A stretch of DNA of 64,000 nucleotides from Minisyncoccota bacterium (GTDB taxonomy: Bacteria > Patescibacteriota > Minisyncoccia > JAHIHE01 > JAGLIN01). The position numbers and the translations under genes are program-made. This document shows positions 2,119-33,932 of the stretch, piece by piece. The stretch is taken from assembly GCA_028691985.1 (NCBI GenBank), contig JAQUYG010000001.1, positions 27,617-91,616 on the forward strand. The letters run 5' to 3'. The notes below the pieces were generated by a model that ran no database searches, had not been told where the DNA came from, and saw only the letters and a program-made list of their open reading frames with translations. Position 1 is the stretch's first letter; each line of letters opens with the position of its first letter.

Positions 2119-2329
2119 AAATCTTCATTAATTATGATTTCACGCGAGACCGCATAGTTGCCCCTCTCGGTCTTCCCGGTTTTAACCTATTTGCTCTTAT
2201 TTTTTAGCGCTCCCTTCGTGCCGAGCCTCATCCATTTATACAGTTAACAATCATCAACCGCCAAGCTATTATAAAGGCAGAATTACGACGAAAAAGTTTT
2301 CTAAGGGGTTAGTCCCGACGAGAGCTTTT

Positions 2330-2872
2330 TTATTTTTTATATTCCAGCTTATTCCTCAGAGGACCTACAAAATCGATAACATTATTATTAGGCAGACTAA
2401 ACTTATTGAGCAATGAAGAATAACTGAATTTATTCGGCGCCAAAATCTTTTTAAATTTATTCTGATTTATCAGATATTCCGCCAGACAATAAAAATCCCC
2501 ATCTCCCGAAACGATAACAGCGGCATTATAATTTTCATACTGGATCATTGAGTGCAAAACCATCTCTGCATCAACATTACCTTTAACTTTTCCAGTCCCC
2601 AATTCCAATGTAGACTTAAACACGCAAATATAACCGTCTTCCTGTAACTTGGTATGCATCGACTGATTTCCCGCCACGAAACCGACGAACAAGAAAGCTT
2701 TTTCAACTTTATATTTGTCCCTTAGATATATCCTGAATTTTTTATAATTAAGCTTCCACCCTGAATAAATTTTTTTACCATCTTTATTAAAAATGTCGCC
2801 TGAAACTCCTAGATATAAATTATTGCTATCAATAAAAGCATAATTTATTTTTTTTGAGATATTTTTAGACAT
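2330..2872 (-). CDS. NYN/LabA-like (PIN-fold) domain protein, predicted RNase
   Basis: 180 aa; YAFIDSNNLYLG ... AAVIVSGDGDFYCLAEYL. These are NYN/DUF88 acidic motifs. It is inserted between nrdD and nrdG. Confidence 0.7.
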   Translation of the reverse strand: MSKNISKKINYAFIDSNNLYLGVSGDIFNKDGKKIYSGWKLNYKKFRIYLRDKYKVEKAFLFVGFVAGNQSMHTKLQEDGYICVFKSTLELGTGKVKGNVDAEMVLHSMIQYENYNAAVIVSGDGDFYCLAEYLINQNKFKKILAPNKFSYSSLLNKFSLPNNNVIDFVGPLRNKLEYKK

Positions 2873-3021
2873 ATCAAATAACTATTATCTCAAACCCATA
2901 TTTTTAAAAGACAGAGCCTTTCCTTCATAATACAGCCTTGAGCATGAGAAGTAAAGAAGACAAAACAATCGGATGAAGACAAAAAAAAGAGAAAAATTAG
3001 TTTTCTCAGTTTAAAACATTA

Positions 3022-3165
3022 TTACAGTATTCCTTTTAAAGCCTCTCTACAAAAATTTCTCATCCCGAAAAAAGCTTTCATCTCTTCAGGGTGATTACAG
3101 GGGTCTTTGCACCCTTTTTCGATACAAATATCCAGTAATTCTGGAAATTTTTCCTCTTGGACCAT
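3022..3165 (-). CDS. Small Cys-rich ORF (47 aa) of unknown function
   Basis: A strong SD (AAAGGAGGG) lies 9 nt upstream of the ATG. The product is MVQEEKFPELLDICIEKGCKDPCNHPEEMKAFFGMRNFCREALKGIL with 4 Cys. It is not in the ORF track because it is under 60 aa. Confidence 0.3.
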   Translation of the reverse strand: MVQEEKFPELLDICIEKGCKDPCNHPEEMKAFFGMRNFCREALKGIL

Positions 3166-3226
3166 AGAAGAAAACCCTCCTTTTACATTTTCTGACTTCC
3201 CTTTTAAATCTTTAATTTTATATATT

Positions 3227-3256
3227 AAAAAAACGCCTCATTGCAGGCGTCTTTAT
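3227..3256 (-). terminator. Intrinsic terminator immediately after the nrdD stop
   Basis: The minus-strand reads GACGCCT-gcaatg-AGGCGTC followed by TTTTTTTAATAT. Confidence 0.7.
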
Positions 3257-3259
3257 AAA

Positions 3260-4999
3260 CTAACACGAAATTGCTGTTTTGATGTCCGGATATTTGGCAG
3301 TATCCTTTCTTGCTAACCTATAAGAAGTTCCTTCCCCGGGGGTCGCTTCCAAGTTATAAAGGTTTCCAGTCTCTTCCTGATATTTAACCATCTTATCTCT
3401 CATAAAATTCAGCACTTCTTCAGCAAAGGCAGAACCTTTTTCGCTTGCAATATTAGTTTTAGAACCGAAGAAATTGATGAGCGCCTCGTTCATTCCGATG
3501 ATTCCGATAGTGGAAAAATGGTTACCCCAATATTCACCTTTTTGTATTCTTATGTTACCCAGATAAAATTTTGAATATGGGTAAAGACCTTTTTCTGTAA
3601 ACTTTTCCAAGGCTTTTCTCTTGATTTCCAAACTCTCCTTGGCAATATCCATCAGCTTCTCCAACCTGGCCAAAAATTCTTTTTTATTCTTCGACAGATA
3701 ACCGATTCTCGGCAGATTGACAGTTACTACACCGATAGAACCCGTCATCGGATTCGCCCCAAAAAGTCCACCACCGCGCTTAAGTAGTTCGCGATTATCA
3801 AGTCTTAGCCGACAGCACATCGAGCGAGCATCCTCCGGACTCATATCGCTATTAATATAGTTGGAGAAATAAGGAATTCCGTATTTTGCCGTCATTTCCC
3901 ACAACGGTTCCAGGTTAGGATCTTCCCAATTGAAGTCTTTAGTAATATTGTAGGTTGGAACAGGAAAAGTAAACACCCTTCCGCTCGAATCACCCTCGGA
4001 CATCACATCTGCAAAAGCCTTATTAAGGATACTGATCTCTTCTCCGAAGTCTTTATATTGATCCTTCTGCGGCACACCACCGATAATAACCGCCTCATCC
4101 GCCAGAGTAGAAGGCACATTGAGATCCATTGTTATGTTTGTGAATGGCGTCTGAAAACCGACACGAGTAGGCACATTCATATTGAATAAGAACTCTTGCA
4201 TCGCCTGTCTAACCTCGCGATAGCTGAGTTGATCGTACCTGATAAATGGTGCAAGCAAGGTGTCAAAATTGGACATCGCCTGCGCTCCGGCCGCTTCACC
4301 CTGAAGCGTATAGAAAAAATTCACCAACTGACCCAATGCCGCTCTGAAGTGCTTGGGAGGAGCACTCTCCACTTTTCCTTTAACACCTCCAAATCCCCTA
4401 GTCAAAAGATCCTTCAGATCCCATCCACAACAATAGACTGACAAAAGACCCAGATCATGAATATGGAAATCTCCGTCCACATGGGCATCGCGCACCTCCG
4501 GCGGATAGATTTTTTCAATCCAATACTTTGAAGTGACGATGTTGGCGATATAATTATTGAGTCCCTGCAACGAATAGGACATATTACTATTCTCTTTCAC
4601 CTGCCAATCCATCTCATTGAGATAGTCATCAACCAAATCCAAAGAGTTCTTGAGCACTTCCTGATTCTCACGAAGCCTCCTGTGTTGCTCTCTATAGAGA
4701 ATGAAAGCTTTAGCCGTGTCTATATAATTTTCTCTTATCAGATAGTTCTCAACAATATCCTGAATTTCTTCAACCGTAGGAATCTCCGCCTTCAGCTTCC
4801 CTCCACCGTTGCGAACAGTGAATCTTTTATTTATTTCGTGCTCTATCTTTCTTGCCAAATCTTCAGCATTTCTTTTATCGCCTTCTTCCGTCGCCTTGAA
4901 TGCTTTTGCGATAACACTCACCAACTTCTTGTTATCAAATTTAACAATTCTTCCATCCCTTTTCCTGATCTGAGCCACCTTTATTTTTTTAGATTCCAT
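3260..4999 (-). CDS. nrdD: Anaerobic ribonucleoside-triphosphate reductase (class III) with ATP-cone. The C-terminal Zn-ribbon/glycyl-radical region appears to be absent.
   Basis: The likely true start is MESKKIKVAQIRKRDGRIVKFDNKKL (ATP-cone); the ORF track extends to 5095 via an upstream alternative start. NrdD hallmarks are present: ...GNHFSTIGIIGMNEALINF... and NLEATPGEGTSYRLARKDTAKYPDI. It ends with TAG at 3260-3262 right after KYPDIKTAISC. Confidence 0.85.
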   Translation of the reverse strand: MESKKIKVAQIRKRDGRIVKFDNKKLVSVIAKAFKATEEGDKRNAEDLARKIEHEINKRFTVRNGGGKLKAEIPTVEEIQDIVENYLIRENYIDTAKAFILYREQHRRLRENQEVLKNSLDLVDDYLNEMDWQVKENSNMSYSLQGLNNYIANIVTSKYWIEKIYPPEVRDAHVDGDFHIHDLGLLSVYCCGWDLKDLLTRGFGGVKGKVESAPPKHFRAALGQLVNFFYTLQGEAAGAQAMSNFDTLLAPFIRYDQLSYREVRQAMQEFLFNMNVPTRVGFQTPFTNITMDLNVPSTLADEAVIIGGVPQKDQYKDFGEEISILNKAFADVMSEGDSSGRVFTFPVPTYNITKDFNWEDPNLEPLWEMTAKYGIPYFSNYINSDMSPEDARSMCCRLRLDNRELLKRGGGLFGANPMTGSIGVVTVNLPRIGYLSKNKKEFLARLEKLMDIAKESLEIKRKALEKFTEKGLYPYSKFYLGNIRIQKGEYWGNHFSTIGIIGMNEALINFFGSKTNIASEKGSAFAEEVLNFMRDKMVKYQEETGNLYNLEATPGEGTSYRLARKDTAKYPDIKTAISC

Positions 5000-5139
5000 C
5001 GATTTGGTCTTTAACTTATTATTTTTAAAGCAAAAAATAAAAATAAAAAACTGCCTTTTTGAAAATATCAGACACCTAAATTCAAAACTTCCCAAAGGGC
5101 AGGATTTTTATTTTTGTTTTTTTATTACACAAGAAAAAA

Positions 5140-6540
5140 CTATTCAGAATCGTTTTTATTTTTATTCATCTTCTTTCGCAGAAATGCTGGAATATCATAC
5201 TCATCGTTATAAGTAATATTACTTATCTTGGATGAGAACGGTCTGCTTGGCGCAAAATCTTCTTTCTTTTCCTCAACAACCGGCTTTACTGGTGTCGGAA
5301 GAATATTTTCTTTAACTTCCTCCTTTACAGGCTCTTTTTCTATTTCTTCCTTTTTCTCTCTTACCTCTTTCTTAAATACGCTTCCAATCGAAGAAGATAG
5401 ATTTTTCTTCAAAGGAATAACTGTCGGTTTAACCTTCTCCTCAGGCTCCTTTTCTTTTTCATCTTCAAATATTTTGCTACTGCTTATTAAAACCGGCTCA
5501 GACCTAGTCATTACCGGCTCGACTGGTCTGTTCAGTGGCCTTACAAAATTAGCCTTCTGTACCGGCTCATCTGAATTCTGAAAACCCGTAGCTATTACCG
5601 TTATCTTTACTTCGCCTTTTTTCAAATCCTCATCAGTTATCGCTCCAAAAATCACTTTGGCACTAGGATCAACCGACTCGGTAATAATCTGTGCCGCCTC
5701 ATTGACCTCCATCATAGTGAGGTCAGTGCCTCCGCTTATGTTAAAGAGTATGCCTTTCGCCCCGTGAATAGAGAGCTCAAGAAGCGGACTGTTGATTGCC
5801 TGTTTAGCAGCATCCGCCGCCCGATTCTCACCCGAAGCGCGGCCGATACCCATCAACGCCGGACCCGTATTCTGCATAATCGCCTTCACATCAGCAAAAT
5901 CAACATTGACGATTCCAGGGATAGTAATAAGATCAGAAATCCCCTGTACCGCCTGTCTTAATACATCATCCACTATCTTAAAAGAATCTAGCAGTGGAGT
6001 TTTCTTATCTATTACCTGAAAAATTTTATCGTTAGGAATGGTTATGATCGTATCAACATTAGCTCTCAGATTTTTTAATCCTTCCTCAGCAATTTTCTTC
6101 CTCTGCATCCCCTCAAAAGCAAACGGCTTGGTCACCACAGCAACTGTCAAAGCTCCGGCATCTCTCGCCGCCTCGGCTATAATCGGAGCCGCACCAGTTC
6201 CGGTTCCACCTCCGAGTCCACAGGTCACAAAAACCATATCGGCATTTTTCAACGCGTCTTGAAGCTCATCTTTGTTTTCCTCAGCCGCCTGCCTCCCTAC
6301 ATCAGGATTCATTCCGGCACCAAGCCCCCTAGTTAGGTTTTTCCCGATATGTATTTTCTCTGCTATTTTGCAATGATGCAAATCTTGCGCATCAGAATTA
6401 ACAGCGATAAATTCAATGCCTTTAAGGTTTGCCTCCTGCATCCTACTGATGGCGTGGTTTCCACTACCACCGACTCCTACAACTTTTATTCGAGCGAATG
6501 TCTCCAGCTCTGGTTTTATCTCTTTCATATATTTAAACAA
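5140..6540 (-). CDS. ftsZ: Cell division GTPase FtsZ with long E/K/P-rich C-terminal linker
   Basis: The tubulin signature [14 protein letters not shown] is present, with [11 protein letters not shown] at the N-terminus. The C-terminal DIPAFLRKK peptide is conserved. Confidence 0.95.
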
Positions 6541-6605: not shown

Positions 6606-7847
6606 TTACGGCAACAAAGCCTTAAAAATTCCTTTGATTTTCTTACCGAGATTTCCTAATTTCACGCTTCCTCCTCTATCTGCATAAAAAAGCCCATTAT
6701 CATCAGCCTCCCACATAACAAGTCCGACAGCAGTTGCAAATTCAGGATCATCAATCCTGTCCACCACACCATTCATCTCTGCAGGGTAACCAATCTGTGA
6801 AGGAAGTCTGAGAATCTTTTTGGCAAGATTTACTATGCCCTGCATCTTCGCACCACCACCTACCAAGACTGCTCCTGCAGGAAGCATTCCGCTCTTATCC
6901 ATTTTCCTAAGCTCATCATCAACCATAGAAAAAATCTCTTCAACCCGCGCCTCTATGATTTCCGCAATATAGTGTCGTTTAAAAATTCCTTCTTCACTTG
7001 AGTCTATTTCTTGAAGATCAATCTCTTCCTGTTTATCTACCTCTGAAGCCATTGCATTACCATACTCCAATTTTATTTTTTCTGCCACATCTATCGAGGT
7101 TCGAAGTCCGATAGCGATATCATTCGTGATATGTCCCGCCCCGACCGGAATCACCGCGGTTCCCAGCATATTACCGTCTTCATAGACCACGATACCTGTC
7201 GTCTCTTTTCCGATATCAATCACCACAACCCCGAGCTCCCTCTGCTTGCGGGACAAGACAGACTTGGCCGCTGCGATAGGAGCAAAAATCATATCATCGA
7301 TATCGATTCCGCATCTCTGCTGGACACATTTCTCGATGTTCTTGATGAAAGGAGCTGCCCCTTGGATCAAAAGTGCGTTTATCTCAAGACGAACTCCGTT
7401 CATACCAACAGGAGACTTGATCTGCTCCTGACCATCCACGGTATAACCACACGGAAAGACATTTATGATTTCCTTATTAGTAGGAACAGAAATCGCCTGT
7501 GCGGCATTCATAACTCGATTAACATCCTCTTCGCTTATTTCCCCATCCGCCCGAGAAACCGCAACTACTCCCTTGGAAAATTGCGAAGAGATATGCTTAC
7601 CGTTTATACTCACAAAAGCATGTTCAACTGGAACCCCCGCGATTCTCTCGGCTTCCTCTTTGGATTTATTAATAGCGTTAATCGTATCTTCGATATCAAC
7701 AATGACACCATTACTAATTCCACAAGAAGGCACCACTCCTACACCGAGGACAAGCGGACTAGAATCATCTCCCTGAATTTGAGCTACAACGGTTCTTACC
7801 TGACCTGCTCCGAGATCAAGTCCTATGATTATGTTTTCTTTTGACAT
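6606..7847 (-). CDS. ftsA: Cell division protein FtsA (actin-like ATPase)
   Basis: 413 aa; IIGLDLGAGQVRTVVAQ ... GGGAKMQGIV. It is immediately upstream of ftsZ on the same strand. Confidence 0.9.
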   Translation of the reverse strand: MSKENIIIGLDLGAGQVRTVVAQIQGDDSSPLVLGVGVVPSCGISNGVIVDIEDTINAINKSKEEAERIAGVPVEHAFVSINGKHISSQFSKGVVAVSRADGEISEEDVNRVMNAAQAISVPTNKEIINVFPCGYTVDGQEQIKSPVGMNGVRLEINALLIQGAAPFIKNIEKCVQQRCGIDIDDMIFAPIAAAKSVLSRKQRELGVVVIDIGKETTGIVVYEDGNMLGTAVIPVGAGHITNDIAIGLRTSIDVAEKIKLEYGNAMASEVDKQEEIDLQEIDSSEEGIFKRHYIAEIIEARVEEIFSMVDDELRKMDKSGMLPAGAVLVGGGAKMQGIVNLAKKILRLPSQIGYPAEMNGVVDRIDDPEFATAVGLVMWEADDNGLFYADRGGSVKLGNLGKKIKGIFKALLP

Positions 7848-31451: not shown

Positions 31452-33932
31452 TTAAAGCAGGTTCGCTTGCAAGTGATAATAGGGCGGACGATTCTTATAT
31501 CGCTTAATTGCCATATGAATGACTTCCTCTAGAAAATCACCGTAGTCCATTCCTGTCAGCTTTGCCACAGAAGGCACGCACGATGTTAGATTGATGGTAG
31601 GATTAGGATTAAGCTCTAGGACATAGGGATTTCCATTCTTATCCACCCTGATTTCCACTCTTCCATAATCATGGCAATCTAAAATATTATAAGTGTCCAG
31701 CGCGATTTCACTGATAACCGCTTCCAATTTTTTGCTTATATTCTTCGGAGGTCTTTGTACCGATATATATTTTTTATAGACTTCTTCCTCTCCATATTTC
31801 GATTCAAAGGGATATATATGCCAATAGCCCTCTGGCATTTTGTCAAAAACCGAACGGGAAAGCGGCAACACGCGCAAATCATCTTCCTCGCTTCCGATGA
31901 TTGAAACATCGTATTCATCCCCCTCGATATACTCTTCGATGAGTGCCGGTCTTCCCATTTCCTTCACAACATACTCCAATTGCCCCTTGAGCTGTTCTTT
32001 ATTGGTTACGACAGAGTTATTTGTAATACCGATGGAATTGTCTGTATTCGCGGGTTTTACAATCAGGGGATATTTAAGATTCTCTCTGACCTTATCTTCC
32101 AACGAATAGACATAATCCCATTCAGGTGTAGGAATTTTGTGATAGTTCAAGAGTTTTTTCACGCGAATCTTGTCGATACACAGGCTCAAAGTGAAAGGAT
32201 TAGAGCCAGTGTAGGGAATTTCCAAAACATCCAAAAGTGAAGCGACATGCGGCTCCAAAAGGCTGGAATTATTAATTCTCTCACAGACATTAAATACCAA
32301 ATCCACATCGCTATTCTTCAAATCGTTAAAAGCCTTTCCTACATCGTTAAAATCAAAAAAACTTATCCTATAACCCCTCTCCTTCAAAGCATTTTGAATA
32401 TTGACCCCTATCGTAGTCAGCTCTTTTTCTAATGTTTCGTCTTCATTCTTGTCATAAAGATTGCAAGCGATACCGATGTGCAGATTCCTCTGATCCTTAA
32501 CGGACATTTTTTGTATTTTTTCTATCTTTTCAACCCTCTTTGCAGCTTCGGTTTTAAGAATCGACGAAGATCGATGGTCTTTTCTTAGCGTTTTTCCTAT
32601 CGACGAAGCGGAGTGAAAACGCGCCACTTCATATTCTATAAGTTTCTCCGCCTCCTCCATATTTTCCTCAGCCTCAGAAGAATTATCGCCCGACACCGTC
32701 ATCCATCCCAGATATTCATAGCCTTCCGGCGGCGCCATTACCGTATCCCCCACTTTCTTGAAAAATTTAACCTCCTCGACAAAATCTTTTTTATTTATCC
32801 CCGGGTCAATATCTAACTGCACGACCACTCCCGAATGATCAGAAAGGAAAGTCTTGGCCAATACATATTCTTTTGCTTCTTCAATCTTCATTTTGGGAAC
32901 ATAAACCCCCATCGCAATTTTAACTGCGCCTTCGATAAGATCTACCCCCCAGACCTTCTTCACACTTGAATACATCTCATCGCCACCCATCCGCAAATTC
33001 GCCTCAATCGGCACCACCCCGCGCCTTGTCACTTTTGCCTCAAAATGGATGCATCCGTCGCACACACCCGCTTTCTCTAGTGTCTCCTCCACCATCGCAA
33101 TGATATCTTCTTGATCATCGTCCGGAAGGTTGGAAGGCGTAAGCCGATAAGTCTCAATAAAAAATGGCTCATGCGTTGCGCTGTTATCGGAGATAGAAAA
33201 GAATTTTATTATTCCATTCTGAACCAAAAGATCAACATCCACTTCACTACCGTCAATATATTCCTCGACCATAATCTGCTTTCCATCGCTGAAAGCCGAT
33301 TCCACTTGCTCCGAAATCGAAGTTTTTACATATTCGAATTTACTTTCCAGTTCTCCGGCATCCTCCACTTTAATCACGAAAGCGCTCGAAGATCCAAAAG
33401 TCGGCTTAATAACAACAGGAAAGGAAAAATTGTCTCGCACAAAATCCAAATCCTTTTCAGAATCGATTGCTCGATGATGAGGTGCCGCAATTTCATTTTC
33501 CTCACAAAAATCCCGAAAAAGCTGCTTATTGCGCACTCCACTCGAAACAGCATAAGGAATTCCGATAAATCCGAACTTATCAACGATTTTAGAAGTCAAA
33601 AGCACATCATCTTCCCAAAAAGTCAACGCCCCTTCGATTTTTTCATCTGGATTATTTTTAATAAACTCCCGCACCGCTCGGAGCGCTTCGGAATGCTTGG
33701 CATTATCCGCCAAAATCCACCTATCCACATAAGGCTCCGCCCAACTCTCTTTCTCACCAAGAACCACAAGCCTCACGCCCGATTTTTTAAGTCTCTGCAA
33801 TATGAATTTTTTCTTGATGGACCCGGTGCTTACCAAAAGCACTGTTCGCCCCGCGATTTTGTCGTTTTTAGAAAAAACTTTATTACTTATTTTCTTGCTG
33901 AACTTAATAACTTTTTTTGCCGTTTTTTTCAT
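31452..33932 (-). CDS. Two-module ATP-grasp ligase (826 aa): an N-terminal ATP-grasp joined to a C-terminal D-Ala-D-Ala-ligase-like ATP-grasp
   Basis: N-half: …FPVVIKPTFGSSSAFVIKVED…IMVEEYIDGSEVDVDLLV…IEANLRMGGDEM. C-half: …YPLIVKPANTDNSIGITNNSVV…ALIEEYIEGDEYDVSIIGS…YGRVEIRVDKNGNPYVLELNPNP. Confidence 0.75.
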   Translation of the reverse strand: MKKTAKKVIKFSKKISNKVFSKNDKIAGRTVLLVSTGSIKKKFILQRLKKSGVRLVVLGEKESWAEPYVDRWILADNAKHSEALRAVREFIKNNPDEKIEGALTFWEDDVLLTSKIVDKFGFIGIPYAVSSGVRNKQLFRDFCEENEIAAPHHRAIDSEKDLDFVRDNFSFPVVIKPTFGSSSAFVIKVEDAGELESKFEYVKTSISEQVESAFSDGKQIMVEEYIDGSEVDVDLLVQNGIIKFFSISDNSATHEPFFIETYRLTPSNLPDDDQEDIIAMVEETLEKAGVCDGCIHFEAKVTRRGVVPIEANLRMGGDEMYSSVKKVWGVDLIEGAVKIAMGVYVPKMKIEEAKEYVLAKTFLSDHSGVVVQLDIDPGINKKDFVEEVKFFKKVGDTVMAPPEGYEYLGWMTVSGDNSSEAEENMEEAEKLIEYEVARFHSASSIGKTLRKDHRSSSILKTEAAKRVEKIEKIQKMSVKDQRNLHIGIACNLYDKNEDETLEKELTTIGVNIQNALKERGYRISFFDFNDVGKAFNDLKNSDVDLVFNVCERINNSSLLEPHVASLLDVLEIPYTGSNPFTLSLCIDKIRVKKLLNYHKIPTPEWDYVYSLEDKVRENLKYPLIVKPANTDNSIGITNNSVVTNKEQLKGQLEYVVKEMGRPALIEEYIEGDEYDVSIIGSEEDDLRVLPLSRSVFDKMPEGYWHIYPFESKYGEEEVYKKYISVQRPPKNISKKLEAVISEIALDTYNILDCHDYGRVEIRVDKNGNPYVLELNPNPTINLTSCVPSVAKLTGMDYGDFLEEVIHMAIKRYKNRPPYYHLQANLL

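Follow-up and report, generated by a model that had tools for sequence, protein, structure and literature searches.

A class III ribonucleotide reductase predicted to be encoded as two polypeptides in a Patescibacteria genome, with the glycyl-radical region on a separate small protein

We investigated the genes for class III ribonucleotide reductase (RNR) in a 64,000-nucleotide stretch (the window) of contig JAQUYG010000001.1 from a Minisyncoccota bacterium (GenBank assembly GCA_028691985.1). The window has a G+C content of 39.6%, and its closest relatives are metagenome-assembled genomes labelled Candidatus Pacebacteria or Parcubacteria, which belong to the Patescibacteria. Its nrdD gene encodes a protein of 580 residues, here called NrdD-N, which terminates before the zinc ribbon and the glycyl-radical loop. 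Relatives encode the lacking region as a stand-alone protein of about 150 residues, here called NrdD-C. We consider it highly likely that this genome runs a two-gene class III RNR composed of NrdD-N and NrdD-C, with the partner gene located outside the window.

The early end of NrdD-N was evident from its matches to family models. The nrdD product aligned to the ATP-cone and to positions 1-435 of the 562 positions of the NRDD profile in Pfam (E = 5.7e-145), to positions 3-550 of the 684 in NCBIfam PRK08270 (881 bits against a cut-off of 548), and to TIGR02487 (434 bits against a cut-off of 326). Because the NrdD profile matches end early, about 130-135 C-terminal residues are absent from the open reading frame (ORF). 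This agrees with a preliminary description made from the DNA alone, which had reported an ORF with ATP-cone and barrel motifs that stops after KYPDIKTAISC and lacks some 130 residues or more; the stop codon is a TAG at 3260-3262. That description had also placed the zinc ribbon and the radical glycine outside the ORF, and the four-cysteine ribbon was indeed not found on the NrdD-N polypeptide, as judged from where the matches to the Pfam and NCBIfam profiles end, nor was the motif R-[VI]-x-G-[YF] found in its ORF. What NrdD-N retains is the ATP-cone together with the greater part of the barrel, in which YCCGWDL and the finger-loop motif SMCCRLRLD (SMCCRLRLDNRE) are both present. The barrel and finger-loop cysteines were invariant in an alignment of 26 sequences, and we take their catalytic roles to be those established for the T4 and E. 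coli enzymes. At its other end, the mechanically called ORF spans 3260-5095 and is limited upstream by a TTG at 5095, which had been taken as the start; the ATG at 5002 (MESKKIKV, matching homologues) is the likelier start codon.

The nrdD-N stop codon is followed directly by a hairpin and a run of seven U, which had been read as an intrinsic terminator. This element is real, with a folding energy of -14.2 kcal/mol (z = -4.8; none of 200 shuffles as stable) and a G+C core of GACGCCU/AGGCGU(U), but the stem had been written one pair too long and lacks the closing G-C pair. The same hairpin is present in the relative L008, and an analogous hairpin lies 3' of nrdD-N in L009. A C-terminal NrdD domain was not found in the window by tblastn with three C-terminal queries or by motif scan. 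The earlier statement that the frames between nrdD and nrdG hold neither a ribbon nor an RxxGY motif was upheld by tblastn, which returned nothing credible, but it had overlooked an in-frame 'SRITGYL' at ~3142, ~118 nucleotides (nt) downstream of the nrdD-N stop. We rejected this string as a relic of an old 3' end and regard it as a chance match, because the window, translated in six frames, contains R[VTIAS]xG[YFW] 11 times and because the string is absent from the 86%-identical DNA of L008, where the frame that is kept is that of a small ORF in the spacer.

The lacking region was sought through the nearest full-length relative, P0072 (724 residues, 74% identity). Past a short variable linker, this protein continues with PYYTNSxQLPV, KYTGGTV, PYxSLTPTFSxCPxHGY, CPKC and CEVYSRVVGYLRPVQQWNKGK. 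Its C-terminal 143 residues, used as a query, retrieved many proteins of 129-160 residues (70-81% identity) annotated as 'hypothetical protein' or 'ribonucleoside-triphosphate reductase'. These NrdD-C proteins carry the motifs YTNS, TGGTV and PYxSxTPTFS, four cysteines and RVVGY. The 13 sequences that were aligned begin with a methionine and a Lys-rich leader, and C97, C110, C113, C119 and G127 of RVVGY are invariant among them. The stand-alone P0139 covers positions 549-683 of the 684 in PRK08270, the model of which the window protein covers 3-550, so that NrdD-N and NrdD-C tile one enzyme exactly.

Both genes were located on a single scaffold in one relative. On scaffold_1 of ERZ23498665 (831,018 bp), nrdD-N (P0048) and nrdG lie at ~332-334 kb, and nrdD-C (P0242) lies ~465 kb from them, at ~799 kb and in the opposite orientation; the P0048 and P0242 genes are both also in GCA_023132875.1. 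The gene order prfB - nrdD-C - ftsE - ftsX was shared by four lineages (P0139, P0242, L011 and P0128), and nrdD-C is under purifying selection (nonsynonymous differences per site, pN, 0.09-0.12 against synonymous differences, pS, of ~0.74). A profile search of genome contigs with nrdD-C was dominated by full-length nrdD, and among the 80 loci that it yielded L011 alone was clearly stand-alone. P0128 was considered as the partner from the window's own genome and rejected, as it comes from another sample. None of prfB, ftsE, ftsX and nrdD-C was found within the 64-kb window, and the expected partner locus would thus simply lie beyond it. The preliminary description had listed a split RNR with its radical module supplied in trans among its possible explanations. 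That idea is supported by the stand-alone gene, by its position on the same scaffold as nrdD-N and by the shared tiling of one model; the accompanying analogy with GrcA/YfiD was imprecise, for reasons given below.

The truncation is a conserved state. Among the 73 best-scoring clusters at 90% identity (73-97% identical to NrdD-N), 71 end 1-7 residues past KYPDIxTA; the exceptions are the full-length P0072 and the borderline P0009, which has a 9-residue tail. Five of these 71 carry an intein elsewhere in the protein and have the same end point. The distance from nrdD-N to nrdG is 68 nt in L009 and 140 nt in L001, which leaves no room between the two genes for the missing ~135 residues. Compared with the 97%-identical relative L008, nrdD-N showed a dS of 0.86 and a dN of 0.011 (dN/dS 0.013), and dN/dS for nrdG was 0.065.

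These data bear on two further explanations raised in the preliminary description. The first is that the reductase is defunct in this genome, an NYN-carrying insertion or an earlier deletion having taken the 3' end and no partner being present. The nrdD-N/nrdG spacer does hold foreign-looking cargo here, and no partner was observed for this genome in its 64-kb window. However, the stop position is common to relatives without the insertion, in which nrdG follows within 68-140 nt, and dN/dS in nrdD-N and nrdG has remained low while synonymous divergence from L008 has reached a dS of 0.5-0.9. The catalytic motifs of NrdD-N are all intact, and the ten largest of the other window ORFs (at least 433 residues) included no second RNR or glycyl-radical enzyme. 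We regard loss of function as very improbable, and the proposal that an NYN insertion killed nrdD is refuted by the low dN/dS and by the relatives that lack NYN and stop at the same residue. The second explanation is an assembly or binning artefact, with the true 3' end contiguous in the organism. It is favoured by the origin of the sequence in a metagenome-assembled genome and by nothing more, and its probability is negligible. The Logan assembly SRR22315505 (2,481 nt) is 100% identical over window positions 4782-2302, and the ENA assembly ERZ27250894 (1,129 nt) is 99.9% identical over 3352-2224; both reproduce the junction of stop codon, terminator, small ORF and NYN gene. More than 70 independent clusters have the same end, and the complete-looking 831-kb scaffold has the same arrangement. 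From these comparisons, decay by NYN insertion and mis-assembly are both excluded as causes of the truncation.

Alignment to T. maritima NrdD (4COI), a comparison already suggested in the preliminary description, fixed the boundary at about residues 510-520, before the region that leads to the Gly loop. NrdD-C aligns to T. maritima IYSNQWVPL, SGGAILHINLGE and MYFAFNTKISVC, followed by the zinc site and RIVGYLVPV. Among full-length relatives, the split falls in a linker that varies in both length (4-13 residues) and sequence. Since NrdD-C adds segments that align to the last barrel strands and NrdD-N is without a Gly site, NrdD-C would be an obligate subunit and not a spare part.

We propose that this Paceibacteria-type genome (Patescibacteria, or candidate phyla radiation, CPR) encodes its class III RNR as two polypeptides. 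The contribution of NrdD-N would be the ATP-cone plus the barrel, in which the radical-relay cysteines lie. NrdD-C, whose gene in this clade would occupy a distant locus (in relatives, between prfB and ftsE), would contribute a Lys-rich leader, stretches that align with the final strands of the barrel, a zinc ribbon with four cysteines and the glycyl-radical loop with RVVGY. The two chains would assemble non-covalently into a complete barrel, and NrdG, encoded beside NrdD-N, would abstract a hydrogen from the glycine of NrdD-C to form the glycyl radical. The radical would then cross from one subunit to the other and reach the cysteine in the finger loop (SMCCRLRLD) of NrdD-N, which would reduce nucleoside triphosphates.

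Several points weigh against this proposal. We infer the partner nrdD-C of this genome from its relatives and place it outside the 64 kb, and the assembly of the two chains, the path of the radical and its location on the small chain are likewise deduced from sequence. An AlphaFold model of the full-length P0072 had a mean pLDDT of 62.7, too low for mapping, so that the placement of the split in a surface loop comes from the alignment. In addition, the exact 580-residue NrdD-N is without an NCBI accession in the protein collection, which may reflect another start call or a pseudogene flag.

The two pieces could in principle also be joined after expression, through split-intein trans-splicing of the gene products or intron halves in the mRNAs, to give one full-length NrdD. 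Inteins are known in this gene, being present after VGFQ in five clade members of ~900 residues and, as an intein domain, in P0156, and split nrd genes of phages are usually caused by introns or inteins (PMC3653736). However, the tails of NrdD-N comprise 1-9 variable residues past the conserved motif, far too short for an N-intein, and the Lys-rich leaders of NrdD-C are 2-25 residues long, vary in sequence and, across the 13 proteins aligned, share no conserved residue at the junction. Precomputed Pfam annotation of the pieces consisted of PF13597 only, with no intein domain. Rfam scans, by E-value and by gathering threshold, found no intron in the window or around nrdD-C at four loci, the matches being tRNAs and one chance match to a long non-coding RNA. 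The terminator directly 3' of nrdD-N also speaks against splicing, and we judge this explanation very unlikely. The five clade members mentioned above (P0045, P0055, P0066, P0069 and P0070) have their ~320-residue intein inserted in the barrel but terminate at the split site all the same, so that intein and fission are found together in one gene family.

A further alternative is that NrdD-N works without a cognate NrdD-C and receives its radical from some other small protein, for example a GrcA-like module encoded by another gene or provided by a phage or by the host bacterium. The phylum does show modularity of the glycyl-radical part: proteins of 81-87 residues with a zinc ribbon and a Gly loop are encoded beside full-length nrdD at six loci, and an NrdD-C of 129 residues is situated in a phage-like region. 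Yet YTNS, TGGTV and PYxSxTPTFS, which align to the T. maritima region before the Gly loop, are absent from NrdD-N, and a module consisting of the loop only would leave the barrel incomplete. The cognate 150-residue subunit is moreover conserved and syntenic in relatives. We consider such a substitute quite unlikely, and the two-gene enzyme of NrdD-N and NrdD-C is the explanation that we prefer.

The locus resembles the canonical NrdD/NrdG systems of T4, E. coli and T. maritima (4COI/4U3E) in its ATP-cone, its barrel motifs and an adjoining activase of the NrdG2 type (TIGR02495, 192 bits against a cut-off of 131), and the best-matching family model here was that of a ribonucleoside triphosphate reductase. 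Unlike canonical NrdD, NrdD-N has neither zinc ribbon nor Gly-radical loop and also lacks the segments that align to the last barrel strands; in relatives, all of these are encoded by a second gene ~465 kb away.

Split RNRs have been described in class II. NrdJa and NrdJb of Pseudomonas aeruginosa are two polypeptides that are both needed for function (Crona et al. 2015, PMC4520616), and the small piece, NrdJb, holds a Cys-rich zinc-finger region (PMC4520616, PMC9669993). This pair was called a unique split RNR in a free-living organism in 2015 (PMC4520616), and split domains were regarded as particular to class II in a family-wide survey of 2022 (PMC9669993). NrdJa/NrdJb and NrdD-N/NrdD-C are alike in that a cellular RNR is cut near its C-terminus. 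They differ in that NrdJa/NrdJb is a B12-dependent class II enzyme whose small piece acts in reductive dithiol exchange and does not bear the radical cofactor as NrdD-C would, and in that the genes nrdD-N and nrdD-C are dispersed.

Split nrd genes have also been reported in phages, including T4 nrdD with its group I intron, nrdD-a/b of phage 949, nrdD of phiAS4 and nrdA-a/b of Aeh1 (Dwivedi et al. 2013, PMC3653736). There nrdD is the nrd gene most often split, in association with introns, inteins and homing endonucleases (PMC3653736). PHROGs holds short families named 'NrdD large subunit', and NrdD-C matches one model of 158 positions. The phage pieces are adjacent, lie at introns, inteins or homing endonucleases and are often of uncertain function. 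The split nrdD considered here, in contrast, shows no mobile element at the break; its pieces lie at separate chromosomal loci and evolve under strong purifying selection, and the split state has become fixed in a large bacterial clade.

GrcA/YfiD of pyruvate formate-lyase resembles NrdD-C in that the Gly loop belongs to a small protein of its own, which docks (or, for NrdD-C, would dock) with a large barrel subunit and is served by a cognate activase. GrcA/YfiD, however, rescues a damaged enzyme that owns a Gly loop, whereas NrdD-C would provide the sole Gly site together with barrel segments. Spare-part glycyl-radical proteins are known for formate lyases only (2026 review, PMC13450708). We found no description, in the part of the literature that was searched, of a split NrdD in Patescibacteria/CPR, or of a split class III RNR in cellular organisms, and a prior description is possible. 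The principle of split RNRs is already known; a dispersed, clade-wide split class III RNR with the radical part as a separate subunit extends it from class II to class III in cellular organisms.

Other states of the gene were observed among Patescibacteria. In a sister clade (591-614 residues, ~66-68% identity), NrdD is cut at the same loop and keeps a tail of 19-39 residues. P0093 belongs to an adjacent split with the order ftsZ - nrdD-N (608 residues) - 110 nt - nrdD-C (145 residues) - nrdG. The adjacent-split state was found at L095:5001-8191 (JGI Ga0180732_1000612; also GCA_018901015.1), where the nrdD-N tail of ~35 residues is novel and ends in QKQxVCA and the spacer between nrdD-N and nrdD-C is 110 nt long and AT-rich. 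The adjacent split may be an intermediate toward the dispersed arrangement. In a neighbour-joining tree, 63 short-tail clusters including that of the window were monophyletic, the full-length P0072 was their sister, and 14 long-tail clusters formed the next branch. This topology would fit either two fissions at one loop or one fission followed by re-fusion, between which the tree is too crude to choose. P0072 is the only full-length protein placed beside the dispersed-split clade; its linker, QYYHRDSDELSD, is atypical, and the protein could be a re-fusion of the two genes.

Searching contigs with the nrdD-C profile also revealed the six loci mentioned above, in which a full-length nrdD is followed by an ORF of 81-87 residues and then by nrdG. 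Three of them are titled Moranbacteria or Moraniibacteriota and the others Parcubacteria group, 'Bdellovibrionales' and 'bacterium'. The small ORFs contain CxxC...CxxC and EVYSR[IV]VGYIRPVxQWNxGK, with a Gly-loop region nearly identical to that of the copy in cis, and five of the six end in CC (that of L031 ends in AIV). By these features they fit the definition of a GrcA/YfiD-type spare glycyl-radical protein, here for a class III RNR. A 129-residue stand-alone NrdD-C (P0182) was found at L098:5001-5390 (ENA ERZ23498471 scaffold_869, 33 kb) between genes for a holin and an amidase/endolysin. Genes for a RusA-like resolvase and a phosphoesterase lie close by, and the genes called in 10.4 kb of this locus included neither nrdD-N nor nrdG. 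These surroundings suggest a phage or prophage that carries the radical subunit alone. In L051 (CP070712.1, the 1.82-Mb chromosome of a Thermoplasmatales archaeon), an nrdD C-terminal region is followed by nrdG, and the 4 kb upstream yielded no nrdD-N match. This archaeal gene may likewise be split, or else carry a very large insertion.

The Patescibacteria thus present a distant radical subunit in trans, an adjacent split, extra mini proteins of 81-87 residues and a phage-borne NrdD-C. More speculatively, the glycyl-radical part of class III RNR, which is oxygen-labile, might be handled in this phylum as a module that is encoded separately and can be exchanged. If the subunit were swapped after oxygen cleavage or supplied by phages, pyruvate formate-lyase would cease to be the only enzyme with a 'replaceable radical cartridge', and this RNR would be the first glycyl-radical enzyme with its native radical site on a polypeptide of its own.

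The split has consequences for annotation. Pipelines will score an nrdD of this kind as truncated or as a pseudogene and its ~150-residue partner as 'hypothetical protein', the label that NCBI gives to P0139 and P0242. Consequently, metabolic reconstructions of many Patescibacteria could wrongly deny them deoxynucleotide synthesis. Work on glycyl-radical enzymes has long faced the question of how NrdG gains access to a glycine buried in the barrel, for which the radical domain flips out; with that domain on its own 17-kDa chain, activation, docking and radical transfer could each be followed as a step of its own. With full-length, adjacent-split, dispersed-split and possibly re-fused (P0072) forms, the phylum also illustrates well how the gene of a core enzyme can undergo fission.

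Positions of the features are collected in Table 1. The preliminary description had further noted, between nrdD and nrdG, an ORF of 47 residues with four cysteines and a Shine-Dalgarno sequence and an NYN gene of 180 residues, and both are present. It had implied that they are tied to the truncation, for which we found no support. The spacer varies among relatives in its cargo and ranges there from 68 nt to ~3 kb; in L008 and L094 (97%-identical) it is ~3 kb long and contains an SDH-protease-family gene, a DUF6941 gene and an ORF of 210 residues.

Table 1. Features of the nrdD-N locus in the window, and related elements at other loci
Feature	Position	Strand	Basis
ftsA	6606-7847	minus	
ftsZ	5140-6540	minus	
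nrdD-N, predicted large subunit of split class III RNR (580 aa)	3260-5002	minus	Pfam, NCBIfam
Intrinsic terminator (hairpin + U7), directly 3' of nrdD-N stop	3225-3258	minus	fold statistics
47-aa, 4-Cys mini-ORF	3022-3165	minus	strong AAAGGAGGG Shine-Dalgarno 7 nt upstream of ATG
Promoter-like site TTTACT-17-TATTAT	2927-2955	minus	consensus scan 9/12, not above chance count
NYN (LabA/DUF88-like, PIN-fold) gene, 180 aa	2330-2872	minus	Pfam NYN
Terminator-like 3' element of NYN: A-run, hairpin, U-run, then CGTCGTAATTCT	2275-2329	minus	alignment of 3' flanks
nrdG, radical-SAM activase (246 aa)	1378-2118	minus	TIGR02495, Pfam Radical_SAM + Fer4_12
DUF167 gene	1104-1370	minus	
NYN 3' element in relatives	L102:1687-1745, L103:4541-4600		
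81-87-aa ORFs	L031:4501-4746, L032:4517-4771, L038:4510-4764		
81-87-aa ORFs	L039:4446-4709, L046:4457-4717, L058:4443-4706		

The status of the mini-ORF as a gene is weakly supported. It was called as a gene in L100, and in L008 it is kept in the same frame and is very diverged (pN 0.35, with indels). It had no match in Pfam, NCBIfam or PADLOC, and its only significant relative among 1.84 billion representatives was itself. As a candidate for a degenerate glycyl-radical or zinc-ribbon module it was rejected, showing no similarity to the 81-residue mini proteins, no family match and no relatives. It is probably an orphan of the closest relatives only and not part of the reductase.

The NYN ORF matched PF01936 over residues 13-151 with 42.0 bits (cut-off 24.2), which confirms the family named in the preliminary description, and its product is a predicted member of the NYN/LabA-like PIN-fold nuclease family. 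This family has thousands of homologues in Patescibacteria. The closest lie between nrdG and the DUF167 gene in L102 (81% identity) and between ileS and Band_7 in L103-L105 (69% identity). An element of ~55 nt follows the gene in three genomic contexts. Four 3' flanks (three distinct sequences) were aligned over 119 columns; mean column identity was 81% over the whole alignment, and invariant columns were mostly inside the element. With the coding sequence at 69-81% protein identity across the aligned contexts, conservation of the 3' element (AAAAAAGCTCTCnTCnGGAC...GAnAACTTTTTnGTCGTAATTCT) seems to exceed that of the NYN gene which it follows. The consensus fold of the element has 13 pairs, one of them compensatory, and the 12 nt past the U-run are kept, all invariant save the first base. 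The element travels with the gene and, from its fold and flanks, looks like a terminator.

Homology to L008 (7741-8112) covers the terminator, the mini-ORF and ~120 nt with the promoter-like site, as far as window position 2903, and restarts exactly at the nrdG start codon. The segment 2903-3021 is common to L008 and L094, where it lies upstream of the variable cargo. A search for flanking repeats that might mark an insertion found short chance repeats only, and the spacer looks like a cassette-like swap site without recognisable repeats. Neither the NYN gene nor the L008 cargo had a meaningful PADLOC match as a defence system, and the region upstream of nrdG (2119-2335) folds no better than its shuffles (z = -0.22), giving no sign of a structured RNA there. 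Nothing in these comparisons ties NYN to the reductase, and the mini-ORF and the NYN gene are best described as apparently unrelated cargo in a variable spacer.

Elsewhere in the window, an ORF of 826 residues (31452-33932, minus strand) contains two ATP-grasp modules, the N-terminal half being L-amino-acid-ligase-like and the C-terminal half D-Ala-D-Ala-ligase-like, which is an unusual fusion. In L008, the spacer upstream of nrdG (L008:10222-10706) contains two copies of a ~35-nt motif, AATGAAGGGATTCCTCGGCArGCTCGGAATGACAAA, together with other GC-rich repeats, which may be miniature repeat elements.

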